A DNA stretch of 50,418 nt from a bacterium (lineage in GTDB: Bacteria > Patescibacteriota > Minisyncoccia > Phycocordibacterales > UBA9973), in assembly GCA_037200905.1 (NCBI GenBank), contig JBBCGN010000006.1, positions 1 to 50,418 of the forward strand. Reading direction: 5' to 3'. This document shows positions 2,878-36,572 of the stretch, piece by piece. The position numbers and the translations under genes are program-made. Below the pieces are notes generated by a model. It made no database searches and was not told where the DNA came from. It worked only from the letters and a program-made list of their open reading frames with translations. Within the stretch, counting starts at the first letter, position 1, and every line of letters starts with the position of its first letter.

Positions 2878-3315
2878 ATGAAAAAAACCAATCAATAATA
2901 TCAAGGTATTGAAGCATAGATCCCTTGAGGAAGCCTTGCTCGAGTTCCGCCATGCCATGACCTCGGCCCTAGTGGAACAGGCCAAAGCCAAAGGCTGCAG
3001 CCTGGCGCATTTCGAAGTCCTGAAGTATATCGCCGAAGAAGGTAGTCCGTACATGAAGGATATCGCCAAGCGCCTCCATATCACTCCGCCGTCGGCGAGC
3101 ACTCTCATCGACGCGCTGGTCAAGCAAGGCTTGGTGCACCGGGCACAGATGCCCGAAGACCGCAGGGACGGTCCGCGTGACGCTCCTGCCGAAAGCCCAC
3201 GCTTTTCTCTTTTCCATCCACAAGCACAAGGCATCGATCTTCAACAAGATGCTTTCGAGATTGAGTGCGGAAGACAAGAGCGATCTTAGCAAGAATCCTT
3301 ATCAAGTGCACATAA
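2878..3315 (+). CDS. MarR family transcriptional regulator, frameshifted
   Basis: MKDIAKRLHITPPSASTLIDALVKQGLVHR winged HTH and EDRR motif, heading an efflux operon. Confidence 0.88.
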
Positions 3316-3327
3316 TACATAACCCGT

Positions 3328-4308
3328 ATGAATACATTCAAACAACTGTTAGCAAAACCGAAAATCGCCATTCCCGCATCTATCATCATCGTCGCCCTGT
3401 TGACGGTCTTCGCATACGGCCGCATCGGCGTGGCGCCGGCCGTGCCGTCTACGGTAGGCCTTTCTAGTTCGCAATCCGCCGTCGTATCCGGCGGCAACGT
3501 ATCGCTCTCGTTCGCCAAAAGCGGCCGCGTGGAATCCGTGCTGGTAAAAGAGGGCGACGCCGTCCGCGCGGGCCAAGTGCTCGCCAAGCTTTCCGCTCCC
3601 GATGCCGAAGGCGCAGTAGCGCAGGCCAAGGGCGCCCTCGATCTCGCCCAGGCCCCAGTACGCCTCTCTCAACTCGCAGTACAAGACGGCGAAGGAGCAG
3701 CAGGATCTCATGGTGGCCAATGCCTACAAGACCATGGTATCGGGTTCGCTCGAAGGCGTGCCGAGCCATCAGGACCAGAACACGCCGATAATTTCCGGCA
3801 CCTATGCCTGCGGCACGGAAGGCTCGTACAGATTGAAGCCGTATAGTTCCGGCGATTCGGATTCGGGCTACTCCCTGGCCGTTCTGGGGGCTCGAGAATG
3901 TTATTATTCCCGTGAAATACGACAATGCCGTGCCGCTCGGCACGTGCGGCCTCGAGATAAAGTTCAATCACGTGAACAGCTTCGACTCGAGCACGACCTG
4001 GACCATCAGCGTACCGAATACCAAGGGGCAGCGCATATCTTGCCAACAAGAATGCTTATGATCTCGCCGTCGCCAATCGCGACAAAGTCCTCGCCGATCT
4101 CGAGACGAACATCGGCACCAATACGACCAACAGCGTCGCCAAGGCCCAGATCGACGCCGCACAAGGCGCGTACCAGGCGGCTCTCGGCGCGTACCAGAAC
4201 AACGTCATCGTGGCTCCGGTTGCCGGCACCGTCACCTTCGTCGATCCGGACCTGAAAGCGGGACAATCGGCAGTCTCCGGCAAATCAGTCATTAGCATTA
4301 ATCAATAA
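3328..4308 (+). CDS. Efflux periplasmic adaptor (HlyD/MFP family) with inserted domain, frameshifted
   Basis: N-terminal TM, SLSFAKSGRVESVLVKEGDAVRAGQVLA lipoyl half-motif, NVIVAPVAGTV second half-motif. Confidence 0.8.
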
Positions 4309-14224: not shown

Positions 14225-14266
14225 GGTGAAATGAGCTTGTATTCCAAGGCTGAAAGAGCATATTGA
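14225..14266 (+). repeat. Distal fragment of the tRNA-Glu-linked att-like repeat (copy G')
   Basis: CAAGGCTGAAAGAG[C/T]ATATTGACTTTT shared with 15013-15039. Reads GEMSLYSKAERAY*. Confidence 0.55.
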
Positions 14267-14333
14267 CTTTTATTTAAAATATGATATACTATATAACGTA
14301 ATCCCGATTTTTCACAATTAAATATATCGCCTC

Positions 14334-14933: not shown

Positions 14934-14981
14934 TCGCGAAATCCTTAAAGCCCCATCCAGATATGGGGCTTTTTTATTTTT

Positions 14982-15034
14982 GTGACCCGTCGCAAGGGAA
15001 TATGCCGAAATACAAGGCTGAAAGAGTATATTGA
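14982..15034 (+). repeat. Internally deleted att-like repeat (copy G)
   Basis: GTGACCC core then AGGGAATATG. Reads GNMPKYKAERVY*, with the TGA inside a TTGACT box. Confidence 0.65.
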
Positions 15035-15102
15035 CTTTTATAAATCAATATGCTATAATATACATAAGAAAACAATTTTTTGACAATCAAATACACACAA
15101 TC

Positions 15103-15724: not shown

Positions 15725-15755
15725 AGCCGATCAGAATATTCTGATCGGCTTTTTT
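15725..15755 (+). terminator. Intrinsic terminator, perfect 26-bp palindrome
   Basis: AGCCGATCAGAATATTCTGATCGGCT plus T-run. Confidence 0.75.
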
Positions 15756-15843: not shown

Positions 15844-16372
15844 ATGATACACGGTATTTCGACAGGCAGGCCCGGAGCCACGCGCTTCAGCCTTCGCGGC
15901 ACGGTGCTTAAGCACGTCACCCACACGACCGGCTGGTGGATATTCAAAGAAACATTTTACGGCATCCAGATCCAGCTCGATGAAAAACTGTAAAGCTGTG
16001 CGAAAAGCAATTCGGTAAGATTTACAATGTCGACGGATTTGAGGCCTCTATAGCGGGTGTCGTCAGTGTATTTTTTCCGCAAGAGGATATTGAAGACAAA
16101 GGCTTTGCGCCGGAACCAATGTCGGTATCACTTTTGCGAAAAGCGGACCGCTTGAGCAGTTCTTTAAAGGATCAGAGATGGTGATGGTAGTAGATGTGGT
16201 AAAGATTAAAGACGGCGTTCGCCTTGAAAACGAGCCGCTCCTATCCAGCTTTCTCTCTTATGATCGGCCGCACCAGATTTTGACAACAGGACTAAATTCC
16301 TGTTGTTTTTCTATTTGTGATCCTAGCGGTGCAGTATTGGAATACTGTAGTAGGGAATATAAGGGGATTTAA
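15844..16372 (+). CDS. Hypothetical protein in fragments, running into repeat copy A
   Basis: TTGACT promoter at about 15777, MIHGISTG.. start, open pieces in several frames up to 16372. Confidence 0.35.
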
Positions 16373-16379
16373 GATATAG
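16317..16379 (+). repeat. tRNA-Glu-linked att-like repeat (copy A)
   Basis: GTGATCCTAGCGGTGCAGTATTGGAATACTGTAGTAGGGAATAT. Confidence 0.85.
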
Positions 16380-16785: not shown

Positions 16786-16858
16786 TTGAGCTTATTTTTT
16801 TGTTGAAGAATTTGATGTTCACCTTTAAAGTAGCACGAAATAAATTGTTTGTCAATTT

Positions 16859-16933
16859 GTGATCCTAACGGTGCTGAATTGGAATACTGTAGTAGGGAAT
16901 ATGTTTAAATGCAAGATTGAAACAAGCTATTGA
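16859..16933 (+). repeat. tRNA-Glu-linked att-like repeat (copy B)
   Basis: GTGATCCTAACGGTGCTGAATTGGAATACTGTAGTAGGGAATATGTTTAAA...TATTGA. Confidence 0.85.
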
Positions 16934-16996
16934 CTTTTCATATAAAATATGCTTTACTATATAAGTAAACAAGTTCTAAAACAAATCAATACAAAT

Positions 16997-17293
16997 ATGG
17001 AAAAAGAACCGTTTGAAGAAAGAATGGTCCGGGTCCAGTGGCCCGAAACGTTTATCGGAAGATGGGTGGCAACCACCCTCTACGGCACTCACATGGAAGC
17101 AGATGTCGTCATTGCAGAGAGTCCTTCCGGCGTCATGTGTTTCGAAAGCAAAGATCACGGCCTGGCCTATTATGAGACGAAAGAGGTAAAGTTAATGGAG
17201 ATAAAAAAAGATTATCCGCGGCTTTACATAAGAGTCTTTGTGTGTGGAAGTACGGAGGAGGAGTTGAAAGAGCGGAAACTCAAGACGGCATGA
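16997..17293 (+). CDS. Hypothetical protein (cassette gene)
   Basis: Intact ORF after a TTGACT promoter, with terminator AACCATCCC-aca-AGGGATGGTT at about 17315. Confidence 0.65.
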   Translation: MEKEPFEERMVRVQWPETFIGRWVATTLYGTHMEADVVIAESPSGVMCFESKDHGLAYYETKEVKLMEIKKDYPRLYIRVFVCGSTEEELKERKLKTA

Positions 17294-17436
17294 CATGATT
17301 GCTGTCTGCAGTGAACCATCCCACAAGGGATGGTTTTTTATTTTGTCCTGAGATAAGCATTTATTACCTGACCGGTCAGAATATTCTGGCCGGTTTTTGA
17401 TTTTTCCGGAAAAAATGCTATTATCATCATGTTTTT

Positions 17437-17512
17437 GGCCCTTATCGTCTAACGGTTAGGACACCGCCTTCTCAAGGCAGTAATCAGAGTTCGATTCTCT
17501 GTAGGGTCACCA
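17437..17512 (+). tRNA. tRNA-Glu(CTC)
   Basis: Cloverleaf, anticodon loop TT-CTC-AA, GTTCGATTC T-arm, encoded CCA. One extra T in the acceptor 5' strand. Confidence 0.92.
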
Positions 17513-17599
17513 TTTAGAGAGCGCTCGAGAAGCGTCAAGATAATATTCAGTAAGTCTGTATACTACGAATTTAACTGAAAAGAGATATAATTTGAAGAT

Positions 17600-18315
17600 A
17601 TGGAAAAATCACCCGAAGAGACAAAAAGGATTGAGGCCTCGATGGAATTTGTCGAAAAATACTACACCGACGACATTGTCGAGAGAGCGAGTCCTGAAAG
17701 CGTGTGGGCAGCGCAGTGGGCGACCTATGTAGACGAAAATCCGTGCTTGATGTGGCATGCGGCCCGCAATTCTATGATGACGCATTGGCATTTGCTCAAA
17801 TTCCGAAAAAGTTCGTAGGGGTAGACCTCAATGAGGCCAACATTAAATTTTTAAAAACCTCCTTACACCCCAATATCATTAAAGCCAAGACAGAGCTTGA
17901 AAGAAACGGGTCGCAAGTTGAATTGCTTGTACAAGACATTACGGCAAGGAAGCCTGAATTCGATAGACAGTTCGACTCGGTATTCGCATCAGGAATCATC
18001 GGCAATTTTGGCATTGCAGAAACTAAAGCAGTCTTACAAAACATCAATTCCTATCTCGCTCTTGGAGGCCAATTCGTCATGGTGAGTTGGGGAGATGATT
18101 ATCTGAGCAAAGAAAAGAGTGAGGAAAGAGAGGCATCTGGATGGTATCAAAAGCAAGAATTGAAGCCGGAAGATTATGCTCGCTTAATCAGCGAGGCCGG
18201 CTTTACAATAGAAAAGCAAGAAGTGCATGAGGTCGCGGATCCTAAAGAGTATGAATGGGGCTGCATATTCGGCTTTATAGCGAGGAAAACCGTAGATAAA
18301 GAATCTTCAAACTAA
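17600..18315 (+). CDS. Class I SAM-dependent methyltransferase, frameshifted
   Basis: SVLDVACG, VGVDLN, QDIT, FDSVFASG, LALGGQF. Confidence 0.85.
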
Positions 18316-18320
18316 TTACA

Positions 18321-18392
18321 CTAAACTATTTCCGCCTTAAATTTAAGCATATTCCCTATCAAATAGTTCCAATTCCGCACCGTTAGGCTCAC
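18321..18392 (-). repeat. tRNA-Glu-linked att-like repeat (copy C)
   Basis: Reverse strand GTGAGCCTAACGGTGCGGAATTGGAACTATTTGATAGGGAATATGCTTAAATTT. Confidence 0.85.
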
Positions 18393-18440
18393 TGATAGAA
18401 AAATAAAAAATCCCGCACAATTTGTACGAGATTTCATGGA

Positions 18441-18947
18441 TCAACATTTAATGCTTCTGACGCTCTCAAAAATAGAGTTCAGTTGTTCTGCTAATAAATC
18501 GAGCTCTTTTCTCTTTTGACTGCAATCTAGAATATCCTTTGGGTATTGGTCTATGTACTCTTGTATGAGCACAGTCATTCTTTCACAAAAAGGATTATAT
18601 CTTATGTACTGCATCAATTCAGAGGAACCAAATTCAGGAGAGGGATTGTTCTTGATACGAAATTTATCTTTAGAAATAAAAAGCACAGTTTGACCAAAGT
18701 CATTGATACTATAAGAACAATGTTTGATTCCCACCAATATGCCAAAGTCAATCAAGCTTTTTAGAAAAGTTCCTTTTTTATCATTAAGAACTTTTAAGAG
18801 GTCATTTCGTTTTGTTGTGATTGTTTCGAATAGTTTTCTTAACTCTCCATCTTTATCAGAGATAAGCTCTTGAATCTTCTCGATTTCATTTTGGGCGTTC
18901 GATAGATATTTTTCAGCATTCTCCAGACCATTAAAGATTTGTTTCAT
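18441..18947 (-). CDS. Hypothetical protein with coiled-coil N-terminus (cassette gene)
   Basis: Intact 168-aa ORF with own promoter and terminator between copies C and D. Confidence 0.65.
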   Translation of the reverse strand: MKQIFNGLENAEKYLSNAQNEIEKIQELISDKDGELRKLFETITTKRNDLLKVLNDKKGTFLKSLIDFGILVGIKHCSYSINDFGQTVLFISKDKFRIKNNPSPEFGSSELMQYIRYNPFCERMTVLIQEYIDQYPKDILDCSQKRKELDLLAEQLNSIFESVRSIKC

Positions 18948-19008
18948 ATTTACGATTTAAGTATTTGAAGAATTTATTTCTGTCCCTATAATATCATATT
19001 AATAAAAG

Positions 19009-19083
19009 TCAATAGGCTAATTCCTCTTTAAATTTAAACATATTCCCTACTATAAAGTTCCAATTCAGCACCGTTAGGGTCAC
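19009..19083 (-). repeat. tRNA-Glu-linked att-like repeat (copy D)
   Basis: Reverse strand GTGACCCTAACGGTGCTGAATTGGAACTTTATAGTAGGGAATATGTTTAAATTT. Core TAGGGTCAC is identical to the tRNA 3' end. Confidence 0.87.
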
Positions 19084-19266
19084 AAATCTTTTGAGAGAGC
19101 AAACTGCTTTGCTCTAGAAAAAATTTGTGAAGACGGAGGCATATGTTTGCAGTGGCAAACAAGCCGAGTCCGGGTCTGGAAAATTTATGAGCGACGGCGA
19201 GTAAATTATTGTGGATCACTGATAGAAAAATAAAACTCTGTAGGATTTCCTACAGAGTAAAAATAA

Positions 19267-19710
19267 CTAAGCCACTGCTGAACTAACTTCTCTAAAAGTA
19301 ATAGAAGTAAGATTCTTGAAAGGTACAATGAGGTAACTTTGAACATGGTTGTCTACTTCTTCTGAATCAATACCTATCATCTCGTCATTATCGAATTCTG
19401 TAATTACAGTATATTTTGCAGAATCTTCTATTGACGGAAGGATAAATAGAACGGAGCGCTCATCTACTGCATACTTTCTCTTCTTGCCTTCAGGGTCTGC
19501 AACGGCATACATATCAATAGCTTGCGCGATCTTGTACTCGTGTGTACCTGGTTTTCCCTTGAGCTCGTAACTGAATATTATGCTCACGACAAAGTTACTT
19601 CCTTTTCCAAAAAGTTCACTGATCTTGTCCATCCAAAATATCGCCAATTGCTCATTATCATTGGTATCTGTTGGCTTTTTAATGACAATTCCATTATTTT
19701 CAGTATTCAT
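19267..19710 (-). CDS. Hypothetical protein (cassette gene)
   Basis: Intact 147-aa acidic ORF with terminator CTCTGTAGG-attt-CCTACAGAG. Confidence 0.65.
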   Translation of the reverse strand: MNTENNGIVIKKPTDTNDNEQLAIFWMDKISELFGKGSNFVVSIIFSYELKGKPGTHEYKIAQAIDMYAVADPEGKKRKYAVDERSVLFILPSIEDSAKYTVITEFDNDEMIGIDSEEVDNHVQSYLIVPFKNLTSITFREVSSAVA

Positions 19711-19796
19711 TGTTAAGGTTTTATGTGAATGTGCAAATTTGTTTACTATTAGACTTTATAACATATTTATGAAAAATCAATAGCTTTTATGAAAAA

Positions 19797-19871
19797 TCAA
19801 TAGCTAACTCCTCTTTAAAATTTAAGCATATTCCCTACCAGATAGTTCCAATTTTGTATACAAAGGGTCAC
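19797..19871 (-). repeat. tRNA-Glu-linked att-like repeat (copy E)
   Basis: Reverse strand GTGACCCTTTGTATACAAAATTGGAACTATCTGGTAGGGAATATGCTTAAATTT. Confidence 0.8.
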
Positions 19872-19899
19872 CTTTAACAGCTCGCACGAGAAGCGTATT

Positions 19900-33910: not shown

Positions 33911-34070
33911 TATTTATTAGTTTTTCAAAGCCGAACCGAAAGGACGGCTTTTTATTTTGTGAGCCTATGACCAGTAGAGACTTCTGGTCCCTTGCCCTAT
34001 AAAGCTATGCAAGACTTTGTCAGTGTATTATTTCGACCCTTCTCGGCTGCTCGGACCAGCTCTCTCATTG

Positions 34071-34149
34071 GTGAGCCTAGTGGTGCGGAATTGGAACTGG
34101 ATAGTAGGGGAAGAATATAAGGGGATTTACGATTACATTATACTATTGA
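34071..34149 (+). repeat. tRNA-Glu-linked att-like repeat (copy F)
   Basis: GTGAGCCTAGTGGTGCGGAATTGGAACTGGATAGTAGGG..AATATAAGGGGATTT...TATTGA. Confidence 0.8.
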
Positions 34150-34212
34150 CTTTTAATATATAATGTGATATTGTATATTTGAAATAAGCTTTTAAAACTA
34201 AAAATCAATAAA

Positions 34213-34554
34213 ATGGATAAAACAGATTTCGAATCAGAGAACTGGTTCATTACCCGCTACGATAAACATCACGGTGTAAGAATTAGTAAACGGGAAGATG
34301 ACAAAGTCATTTATGACATTGAATGCATGATAAAATACGGAATGTACGGTGTCACACCAACGAATGATACTCCAAAGATAGTACACGAATTACTATCAAT
34401 AACCGGAGTAAATCTTGTTGCTTATGATCCTCGTCCAGAGAAAGCCTGTGTTCGATTCATCAACGTTAACTCTTATTACAGAGAGAATGAGGTTCTCAAC
34501 CCTGCTAAGTTTATTTTGTCGAAATACAAAAACAGAGAACCCGTTCTTTATTGA
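34213..34554 (+). CDS. Hypothetical protein (cassette gene)
   Basis: Intact 113-aa AT-rich ORF after copy F and its promoter. Confidence 0.65.
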   Translation: MDKTDFESENWFITRYDKHHGVRISKREDDKVIYDIECMIKYGMYGVTPTNDTPKIVHELLSITGVNLVAYDPRPEKACVRFINVNSYYRENEVLNPAKFILSKYKNREPVLY

Positions 34555-35106: not shown

Positions 35107-35154
35107 ACGCTACTCGAGCGCTCTCTAAAAGGTGAGGATTCAGCAGGTAGAACC
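35107..35154 (+). repeat. Copy of the tRNA-Glu(CTC) downstream flank plus a decayed tRNA 3' end
   Basis: 35107-35135 matches the reverse complement of 17507-17535 at 27/29 nt. Confidence 0.75.
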
Positions 35155-35239
35155 TTTCGATTCGTTGCCCTGCAAGGTTATTTCTAATAATTAGCGACTA
35201 ACATCCCGACCCTTCTCGTGAGTGTAAATTTTTGCTAGC

Positions 35240-35835: not shown

Positions 35836-36443
35836 TCAGTCGGGGAAGAGGACTATTCCTTTAAGATTTTCATGCGGTTCCCTTGTAACGTATGACTCAT
35901 CGTGAGATCCCCAAAGAACAGCAACTGTCGGTATTTTAGCACGGTCGGCTTCTCGAATATCGCCCAGCGTGTCGGTAACAAATAGCATGTCTTCTTTTTT
36001 TATCTGATACTTTTCTTCAATCATGTTAAATTTCTCAACTTTATTTCTTGAAATTTCTGCCGAGGCTACCAAATCAAACATATCTCGTATACCTGCTTTT
36101 TCCAAAAGCGGTAGTAGATTTCGCTCCATAGCAGAAGAATTGATGGTCAAAATGTAATCCTTTGCTTGAGGAATTTTAGTAATTCAAACATTCCGTCATA
36201 CATTCCGACTTCTAATTTTTGTTGTGAGTATGCCAGTTTTCTTGATTCTTTTTCTTCCTCTGTCCGAATAACGGCAGTATTGTTGAGTTTGAACTTCCGT
36301 ATTTCTTCATGGAAGTTCCCGGCCAATAACTCTTTGTGATGGCTTCTTGTCAGATAAGGATAATCTTCTAGAAAAGCATTCTCAGCAATTGTTACAGAGT
36401 CAAAGAGAACCCCGTCCATATCGAAGATGATCAATTTTTTCAT
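35836..36443 (-). CDS. HAD-superfamily hydrolase, frameshifted
   Basis: IIFDMDGVLFDS, LTINS, FVTDTLGDI, AVLWG. Confidence 0.85.
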
Positions 36444-36497
36444 ATATCTGATTATATCAGAAGAGTCTATTTCTGAGTTTCTCGTGCGCGCTGCTGT

Positions 36498-36572
36498 TGG
36501 TGACCCTACAGGGAATCGAACCCTGATTACCGCCTTGAAAAGGCGATGTCCTAACCGTTAGACGATAGGGCC
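36498..36572 (-). tRNA. tRNA-Glu(TTC)
   Basis: Cloverleaf, anticodon loop TT-TTC-AA, encoded CCA. Nearly identical to 17437..17512. Confidence 0.95.

Follow-up and report, generated by a model that had tools for sequence, protein, structure and literature searches.

A stretch of 50,418 nucleotides from a bacterium of the Patescibacteriota (contig JBBCGN010000006.1 of assembly GCA_037200905.1, hereafter the window) carries a repeat of ~85 nt, present as six full copies, an internally deleted copy, G, and a promoter-end fragment, G', all on this contig. Our analysis indicates, with a probability that we put at about 85%, that this repeat combines the P' side of an attachment site with the last ~24 codons of a large serine recombinase (LSR) that targets tRNA-Glu genes, and that it was left by small integrative elements. 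An initial annotation, made from the sequence of the window alone, had likewise taken the repeat for the remnant of a recombinase C-terminus with the attachment site attP inside the gene; this proposal is borne out by the occurrence of the motif within intact LSR open reading frames (ORFs) at two other loci, L055 and L056, and by the rank of the copies in a search with a profile of LSR tails.

Homology of the repeat peptide to recombinase C-terminal tails

The copies were located with nhmmer, using a five-copy profile, and with a sequence-only covariance model, which gave seven members, A to G; by the same two methods, no copy was detected on the five remaining contigs of the genome (677 kb). 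Five matches to a 23-nt pattern of the repeat were obtained, compared with none in 100 shuffles. Translated from the GTG of the core, copies A to E and G yield the peptides listed below, and the 24 codons of copy F are restored when a 4-nt GGAA insert is removed, exactly as the initial annotation had quoted them. The full copies end in a sigma-70-like promoter, the -35 box of which contains the stop codon of this frame.

A hidden Markov model (HMM) built from the C-terminal tails of 14 intact LSRs only was run on the 23,366 six-frame peptides of the genome. It ranks copies E, D, F and C as matches 1-4 (E = 0.04-0.2) and places B and A among the first 11; each of its matches to the repeat copies lies in the frame read from the core GTG. 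The repeat tail aligns without gaps to the consensus VTLIIRNWNQIFNQIKGF, the best fit to the general form (NQIKGF) being that of copies A and F (GNIRGF). The copies are as follows.

Copy G', 14245..14292, plus strand: promoter-proximal end only (..KAERAY, stop, then TTGACT-16-TATACT); its promoter-like site, 14263-14290, matches 10/12; repeat family D5.
Copy G, 14982..15062, plus strand (profile match to the right half only, 14995-15039): core GTGACCC, tail end ..GNMPKYKAERVY and stop, promoter TTGACT-17-TATAAT (11/12); a terminator, 14947-14972, abuts it.
Copy A, feature 16317..16379 (profile match 16313-16376), plus strand: orphan tail VILAVQYWNTVVGNIRGFKI and stop; truncated, with the promoter missing; matched by the tail HMM; a terminator, 16282-16307, lies just upstream.
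Copy B, feature 16859..16961 (profile match 16855-16938), plus strand: orphan tail VILTVLNWNTVVGNMFKCKIETSY and stop; the TGA stop falls in the TTGACT -35 box belonging to the following gene, ORF 16949-17293.
Copy C, feature 18321..18396 (profile match 18314-18396), minus strand: orphan tail VSLTVRNWNYLIGNMLKFKAEIV and stop, without an intact promoter; a terminator, 18435-18407, lies just upstream.
Copy D, 19004..19087, minus strand: orphan tail VTLTVLNWNFIVGNMFKFKEELAY and stop, with the promoter of ORF 18441-18947; best match of the repeat model; tail HMM E = 0.09.
Copy E, 19792..19875, minus strand: orphan tail VTLCIQNWNYLVGNMLKF, which stops early; also carries the duplicated promoter of ORF 19267-19710; top match of the LSR-tail HMM, E = 0.04.
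Copy F, feature 34067..34163 (profile match 34067-34154), plus strand: orphan tail frameshifted by a 4-nt insertion; a promoter and ORF 34213-34554 follow.

The assignment of the frame was examined in 29 related sites from other genomes. Over 18 codons, these sites contain no stop in the frame read from the core GTG, as against 78 and 18 in the other two, and the ratio of nonsynonymous to synonymous changes (pN/pS) is 0.64-0.68, as against 0.9-1.4. The frame-specific bias that the initial annotation had named as a test is thus present among related sites. The second frame, xDPNGAELELxSREYx, which had been left open as a competitor, drops out, in that it is not kept open outside the source genome. 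Beyond the first nine codons, the changes are codon-like (TTT/TTC, CAA/CAG, AAA/AAG, GGT/GGA/GGG, and exchanges among I, L and V), while in the first 27 nt conservation extends to each of the three codon positions, a figure inflated by the search pattern itself. These 27 nt are probably doubly constrained, as a half-site and as codons, which fits their conservation at every codon position.

Complete elements and the recombinase family

The source of the tail is seen in complete elements elsewhere. At locus L042, a 539-aa ORF with the resolvase signature ..VIYVRVSSAEQ.. lies between the motif and the tRNA and reads antisense into the tRNA (..EPSSLVTLPGIEPGLQP / ..YLTEPSSLVTLPGIEPGLQP, then stop), and the tail site stands at the opposite end of the island from this LSR-tRNA junction. 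A database search with the ORF returned 1,749 relatives with PF00239, PF07508 and often PF13408, which, judged from this domain content (Resolvase, Recombinase and zinc ribbon), are LSRs. The C-termini of the best 120 of the 1,749 family members fall into the following classes.

Antisense-tRNA peptide (..SSLVTLQRIEL, ..VTLPGIEPGL.., ..VAPRGVEPLL..): ~93 members, median 506 aa; integrated form.
..LV(T/A)L...NWN.(I/L)......(F/W)..: ~15 members, median 529 aa; full-length form, ~23 residues longer.
Other: ~11 members.

Among these 120, the general antisense-tRNA ending is ...SSLVTL(Q/P/R)(R/G)IE(L/P), and the exact ends VTLQRIEL and VTLQGIEP, found in six and in one, respectively, are the antisense reads of the two tRNA-Glu genes of the window. 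The search for both peptides as recombinase C-termini that the initial annotation had proposed was thereby answered positively, since the tRNA-derived endings and the NWN form both occur. The C-terminus of LSR P0047 equals the antisense 3' end of tRNA-Glu(CTC), and LSR P0101 ends in ..VTLQGIEP. The long form is exemplified by P0045 (..STLVTLCLKNWNQIFLYIKNFRHNF..) and P0100 (..FVDSVIRNWNNIIIHLRNFQNF..), and at the DNA level the repeat sequence lies inside the intact LSR ORF in both cases, as GTGACCCT..AATTGGAACCAGATTTTT in P0045 (L055) and as GTTATACGGAATTGGAAC in P0100 (L056).

A complete element of 7.3 kb was found in a Nomurabacteria contig (L057), where the LSR ends ..NPSSLVTLQRIEL and stop inside tRNA-Glu(CTC). 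Its order is:

terminator, GTGACCCTAAGTAGTGCAAATTGGAAC.. (VTLSSANWNLIVYQIKSF.., stop), cargo, Rep (PF23343), 61-aa ORF, LSR, tRNA-Glu(CTC).

In both L042 and L057, the LSR reads into tRNA-Glu and the displaced tail lies at the far end of the island; the LSR domain set was found in the related elements L042, L057 and L055.

In an AlphaFold model of P0045 (32-sequence alignment), the zinc ribbon is followed by a long helical segment, with the core codons in helix 493-502 and a tail helix at 504-528; the predicted local distance difference test score (pLDDT) is 86-91 up to about residue 510. As modeled, integration would swap a structured C-terminal helix for 5-12 residues of antisense-tRNA origin.

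In two intact elements, the cargo gene closest to the tail seems to have a defence-related function, namely an OLD-like AAA_15/TOPRIM nuclease (L055 3788-5569) and Hypoth_Ymh (L057 4485-4997); in L042, the first cargo gene encodes a 254-aa protein (2985-3749).

Other LSR subfamilies of the same genus also read across tRNA ends (L060-L069; genomes G012, G438, G017, G008, G021, G013, G030 and G033), their targets include tRNA-Glu, tRNA-Ala, tRNA-Leu and tRNA-Phe, and in some cases the gene extends further into tRNA-Glu (..DPTGNRTRITGLKSRCPNR). Since several subfamilies share this behavior, the overlap between gene and attachment site at tRNA targets seems to be general in these bacteria. The LSRs of three of these genomes, G012, G438 and G017, were considered as cognates of the repeat, as they read into tRNA-Glu; they share, however, ~36% identity with P0047, their far ends yielded no NWN tail, and they were set aside as a different subfamily.

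Architecture of the attachment sites

The two tRNA-Glu genes of the window provide the attB-type counterpart of the repeat:

tRNA-Glu(CTC), 17437..17512, plus strand: attB-type target; antisense 3' end VTLQRIEL and stop, identical to the C-terminus of integrated LSRs such as P0047.
tRNA-Glu(TTC), 36498..36572, minus strand: second target; antisense 3' end VTLQGIEP and stop; the flank 36470-36497 is a left-arm copy.

Both antisense reads are as the initial annotation had given them. The core common to tRNA and repeat is (T)TGTGACCCTA. Counted from the GTG, GGAATCGAACC starts at +13 in the two tRNA-Glu genes, whereas in the repeat and in the 29 related sites GGAATTGGAACC starts at +17 and ends 5 nt later, such that the repeat has the motif GGAATyGrAAC 4-5 bp farther from its core than the tRNA does. 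Serine integrases show a 5-bp shift of the motif bound by the zinc-ribbon domain between attB and attP, the motif being nearer the centre in attB (Rutherford et al. 2013, PMC3783163). At the level of sequence, the offset between repeat and tRNA agrees with this attP/attB offset, as do short sites that share a core. In copies A-F, the core-proximal half-site is well preserved.

Complete elements further delimit the point of exchange. In L057, the differences between the two junctions place the crossover within GTGAC, corresponding to tRNA positions ~70-74, and the junction differences of L042 and L057 together confine it to GTGAC(C), within which several dinucleotides are possible.

Linkage of the motif to tRNA-Glu in other genomes

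Within the same genus, the repeat model gave weak matches only, and other families of the order contain the first 27 nt of the repeat in slightly altered form. When one genome of each species was scanned for the pattern RTGANCCNNNTTNTACNNRATTGGAAY, 33 loci were retrieved, 28 of which belong to Patescibacteria (Nomurabacteria, Paceibacterota, Saccharibacteria and Parcubacteria); their consensus is TTGTGACCCTAATTATACGGAATTGGAACCAGATTTTYAATCAAATAAAGGGTTTT, which translates to the tail consensus given above. In 17 loci, a tRNA-Glu gene lies 0.3-4.7 kb from the motif, and in all 17 it is on the same side and on the opposite strand. Copies C, D and E of the window point in this manner to tRNA-Glu(CTC), and copy F to tRNA-Glu(TTC).

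The islands between motif and tRNA-Glu lack an LSR in 16 of the 17 cases, a count that may omit longer, LSR-bearing islands extending beyond the 8-kb loci. Scanning metagenomes for the subtype pattern of the window added three sites, all of them orphan and LSR-less; their tails are of the GNIRGF type (for example, VTLGGWNWNQIVGNIRGF..), intermediate between the variant of the window and the consensus. From these islands and sites, it follows that orphan tails without an integrase are the commoner state at such positions. Arrays also occur elsewhere, as L033 has two motif copies 644 bp apart.

Arms, flanks and cassettes in the window

On the other side of the core, a left arm, CTTCTCG..GCGCTCTCTAAA.GGTGACC, is present at both tRNAs, at copy E and at 35107, with a longer form at copy F. 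Its translations, FSCALLL at tRNA-Glu(TTC), FSCELLK at E and FSSAL-stop-M at tRNA-Glu(CTC), agree with those quoted in the initial annotation. The arms and a further flanking segment are:

17513..17535, plus strand: left arm of tRNA-Glu(CTC), 82% identical to the flank beside copy E; repeat D7.
19872..19896, minus strand: left arm of E, like the tRNA-Glu(CTC) flank; repeat D7.
35107..35180, plus strand: left-arm copy followed by a decayed antisense tRNA-Glu 3' end, as read from the sequence; similar to 17513-17535.
19088..19222, minus strand: conserved non-coding segment left of the core of D; starts with the core-like GTGATCC and abuts the tRNA-Glu 3' end in other genomes.

The segment beside D is ~130-150 nt long, with a core-like GTGA(G/T)CC at its start and the real core at its end, and it abuts the tRNA-Glu 3' end in three other genomes. 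The left flank of D (19075-19176) is 84% identical over 102 nt to sequence of L043 that directly abuts tRNA-Glu, and relatives of the segment lie at L043 4895-4996, L034 3861-4018, L047 3791-3887 and L052 4672-4768. Relative to L043, DNA has been inserted in the window exactly at the core of D. Compared with a profile of LSR 3' ends, the segment and its relatives gave a weak match (E = 0.019 in a 30-sequence set, with overlapping frames), and on the resemblance of KFSSPGLSYF..PSSQ to KFGTxKLSPIY..PSSL the segment might be a decayed LSR 3' end.

Between the copies, the G+C content is 32-45%, compared with 55-62% in the surrounding DNA. Most of the cassette genes are orphans: a methyltransferase and an AAA_33 kinase-like protein are the only products to which Pfam assigns a family, and the gene of the D cassette has no homologue in 40 relatives. 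The methyltransferase gene, between tRNA-Glu(CTC) and copy C (17600-18315, plus strand), consists of two overlapping ORFs, 17600-17818 and 17704-18315, which suggests a frameshift. A HAD-like gene adjoining tRNA-Glu(TTC) (35836-36443, minus strand) is split into ORFs 36147-36443 and 35836-36150 and is thus probably a pseudogene.

A terminator directly precedes most copies, and terminator-like sites number 15 where 4.7 are expected. Strong terminator hairpins (14947-14972, 16282-16307, 18407-18435 and 19235-19258) recur with the sequence TTTTTCTAT(TT/CA)GTGA(T/G)CC behind them, in at least three occurrences (before A, before C and at 19222), so that the junction of terminator and core is itself a repeated unit of the cassettes. 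In addition, near-identical palindromic terminators at 15727-15748 and 17372-17393 (CCGATCAGAATATTCTGATCGG / CCGGTCAGAATATTCTGGCCGG) close two different cassettes, the second lying just upstream of tRNA-Glu(CTC).

Outside the window, the genome contains an LSR at C1:275312-276718 that is different and shorter, ends ..LILINKRVVLE and stop, and has a tRNA-Gln gene ~2 kb away.

Origin of the array and alternative explanations

The geometry of the complete elements suggests a route by which the repeat probably arose. The free circular element would carry attP inside the 3' end of its LSR gene, with the core TTGTGACCCTA read as (L)VTL, the next ~20-30 codons specifying the C-terminal helix (..NWNxI..I..F..), and the stop codon of the tail overlapping the -35 box of the first cargo gene. 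Such an element would recombine with the extreme 3' end of tRNA-Glu by a crossover within GTGAC, which would fuse the LSR to antisense tRNA codons (..VTLQRIEL and stop) and displace the codons of the tail, along with the P' half-site and the promoter, to the opposite end of the island. Both tRNA-Glu genes would have been used repeatedly and the LSR genes since deleted, so that low-GC cassettes of one gene each are left in a stack, with an orphan tail and its half-site at the head of every one. The kinship of the repeat peptide with LSR tails, the split arrangement of complete elements, the offset of the motif between attP and attB and the lack of the LSR in this genome are direct observations; that these particular copies arose by LSR recombination, and the order of the events that built the array, we infer from the comparison with elements elsewhere.

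Several observations weigh against this origin. No LSR of the family was found in the assembled genome, which is 72% complete, and no fragment of an LSR body in the window, by tblastn or with the full-length HMM; it is for this reason that the window is taken to hold relics of LSR elements and not an active element. The only LSR of the genome, encoded at C1:275312-276718, shares ~25% identity with the tRNA-Glu family and shows no overlap with a tRNA. Nor was an intact LSR with the GNM/GNI tail subtype of the window found: a chimeric query limited to the tail region, seeking an LSR with a GNM tail, matched only P0047 itself, and the metagenome scan with the subtype pattern found no LSR near the three orphan sites. 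Individual copies reach modest E-values with the tail HMM (0.04-6) and, being paralogues, are not independent matches; the result therefore counts as one family-level match, supported by its context. The left arms are not recognisably derived from an LSR, as judged by a targeted flank test and by an HMM of the 42 residues that precede the LSR core, which has no match in the window or the genome, and the arms (FSCALLL / FSCELLK), which may come from an LSR 3' end or be native flank, are at most putative coding remnants. Copies A, B and G, which lie 5' of tRNA-Glu(CTC) in inverted orientation, can be accommodated only by assuming a rearrangement; their arrangement would be consistent with an inversion that involved sites of opposite orientation at the two tRNA-Glu loci. 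As attP and attB are normally the only pair of sites that serine integrases recombine, both the stacking of units at one tRNA and the inverted copies need extra events, for which tandem multimers, deletions and inversion are candidates.

The frame-specific bias is weak in the window itself, where pN/pS among the copies is 0.58, as against 0.70 and 1.12 in the other frames. The copies are also damaged: F has its frameshift and A its truncation, E stops early, and G, which keeps the core GTGACCC at 14982-14988, has an internal deletion of ~27 nt with which the frame is lost. Given this weak bias and this damage, the peptide signal in the orphan copies is inherited from the LSR gene rather than clearly maintained.

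An alternative that is compatible with the LSR-tail origin, and that adds to it a present-day function, is that the copies are working sites of an integron-like cassette-capture system, in which an LSR acting in trans moves single-gene units at tRNA-Glu loci. The prevalence of islands without an LSR, the orphan state of all three metagenome sites of the window's subtype, the array in L033 and the well-kept half-site of A-F are what such a system would produce, and every unit of the window has a promoter and a terminator of its own, terminator-like sites being in excess. Conversely, four of the copies (F, G, A and E) carry lesions, the left arms differ among copies such that most junctions are unlike a complete attP, and constraint on frame and sequence among the window's own copies is weak. 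Furthermore, the genome has no family LSR to act, the orphan genes have no homologues in the 40 relatives, and no shared cassette was seen in two places. Cassette capture in this sense appears unlikely. In a broader and still speculative form, which we advance only tentatively, the tRNA-Glu loci could be gene-capture platforms at which units of P' half-site, tail and promoter are stacked and possibly shuffled by an LSR in trans, the swap of the C-terminal helix serving as a switch of activity or direction.

The remaining explanations deny the repeat a serine recombinase origin. It might be a non-coding regulatory or RNA element, such as an upstream promoter element, an operator or a small RNA, with the peptide accidental, as it always ends in a sigma-70-like promoter and its first 27 nt are conserved irrespective of codon position. 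Yet the substitutions downstream of the half-site are codon-like, intact LSR ORFs (L055 and L056) contain the repeat sequence, and the linkage to tRNA-Glu and LSR explains the conservation directly; moreover, there is no match to an Rfam family and no conserved secondary structure or covariation, with only four invariant pairs and -0.97 kcal/mol. A structured RNA or tRNA-like element was ruled out on the lack of covariation and of an Rfam match, and a non-coding role of any kind is highly improbable. Slightly harder still to credit is an independent micro-protein of ~24 aa, starting at the GTG. Its frame is indeed open in 29 of 29 related sites, four of which have ATG as the first codon, but the R (A or G) at that first position is imposed by the search pattern, no Shine-Dalgarno sequence or promoter precedes it, a terminator usually abuts the site, the length beyond the first 18 codons is highly variable, and in intact elements the same codons are internal to an ORF of ~530 aa. 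The initial annotation had looked to the tyrosine recombinases of phage Mx8 and SSV1-type elements for a precedent, and tRNA 3' ends are indeed the classical targets of such enzymes, with attP lying within int in both Mx8 and SSV1. As regards the enzyme class, this precedent does not hold: all of the recombinases found to end in the two peptides are serine enzymes with PF00239 and PF07508, and often PF13408, the attachment-site architecture fits serine integrases, and the only PF00589 gene of the genome is on another contig (C1:90654-91166). A remnant of a tyrosine-integrase element can be practically discounted.

Relation to known systems and implications

The LSRs cognate to the repeat have the same domain set, Resolvase, Recombinase and zinc ribbon, as the integrases of phiC31, Bxb1, Listeria A118/LI and SPbeta (SprA), and the long helical segment that follows the zinc ribbon in the AlphaFold model is a further point in common. 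The attachment sites are alike short, and the distal motif lies 4-5 bp farther out in attP, as for the LI integrase (PMC3783163). Unlike the known large serine integrases, the present family targets the extreme 3' end of a tRNA, its attP lies within the LSR's own coding sequence, such that integration replaces a C-terminal helix of ~25 residues, and the enzyme itself is absent from the window. Serine integrases have been described as not targeting tRNA genes (PMC4383910), and tRNA targets are not mentioned by Durrant et al. 2022 (PMC10083194). In the literature searched, no description was found of an LSR with a tRNA target and with attP inside its own gene. The type of enzyme, the short length of its sites and the offset of the motif are familiar from large serine integrases; the tRNA target and the position of attP were not encountered in that literature.

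An attP inside the integrase gene is known for Mx8 IntP/IntX and for SSV1-type elements, both of which use tyrosine recombinases. There, as established knowledge has it, integration at the tRNA changes or splits the C-terminal part and leaves a displaced coding fragment at the other end, and the same is seen here; the tyrosine chemistry and the architecture of the attachment sites nevertheless differ from those of the present serine family. Integron cassette arrays, likewise, consist of single-gene units bounded by copies of a recombination site beside a fixed entry site. They differ in that no IntI tyrosine recombinase was found in this genome and no attC hairpin in the repeat (four invariant pairs only); here, every unit carries a promoter of its own, the site sequence is part of a recombinase gene, and the mobility of the cassettes is putative.

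The origin proposed here accounts for a puzzling repeat, for two low-GC patches and for about a dozen orphan genes left by repeated invasions. With orphan tails so prevalent, one must ask by what means islands of this kind are maintained or mobilized. Serine integrases are widely used enzymes in genome engineering, and in this family every insertion rewrites the C-terminus of the LSR, the attachment site being inside the enzyme's own gene. The window would thus represent the footprint of a large family of Patescibacteria LSRs that targets tRNA genes.

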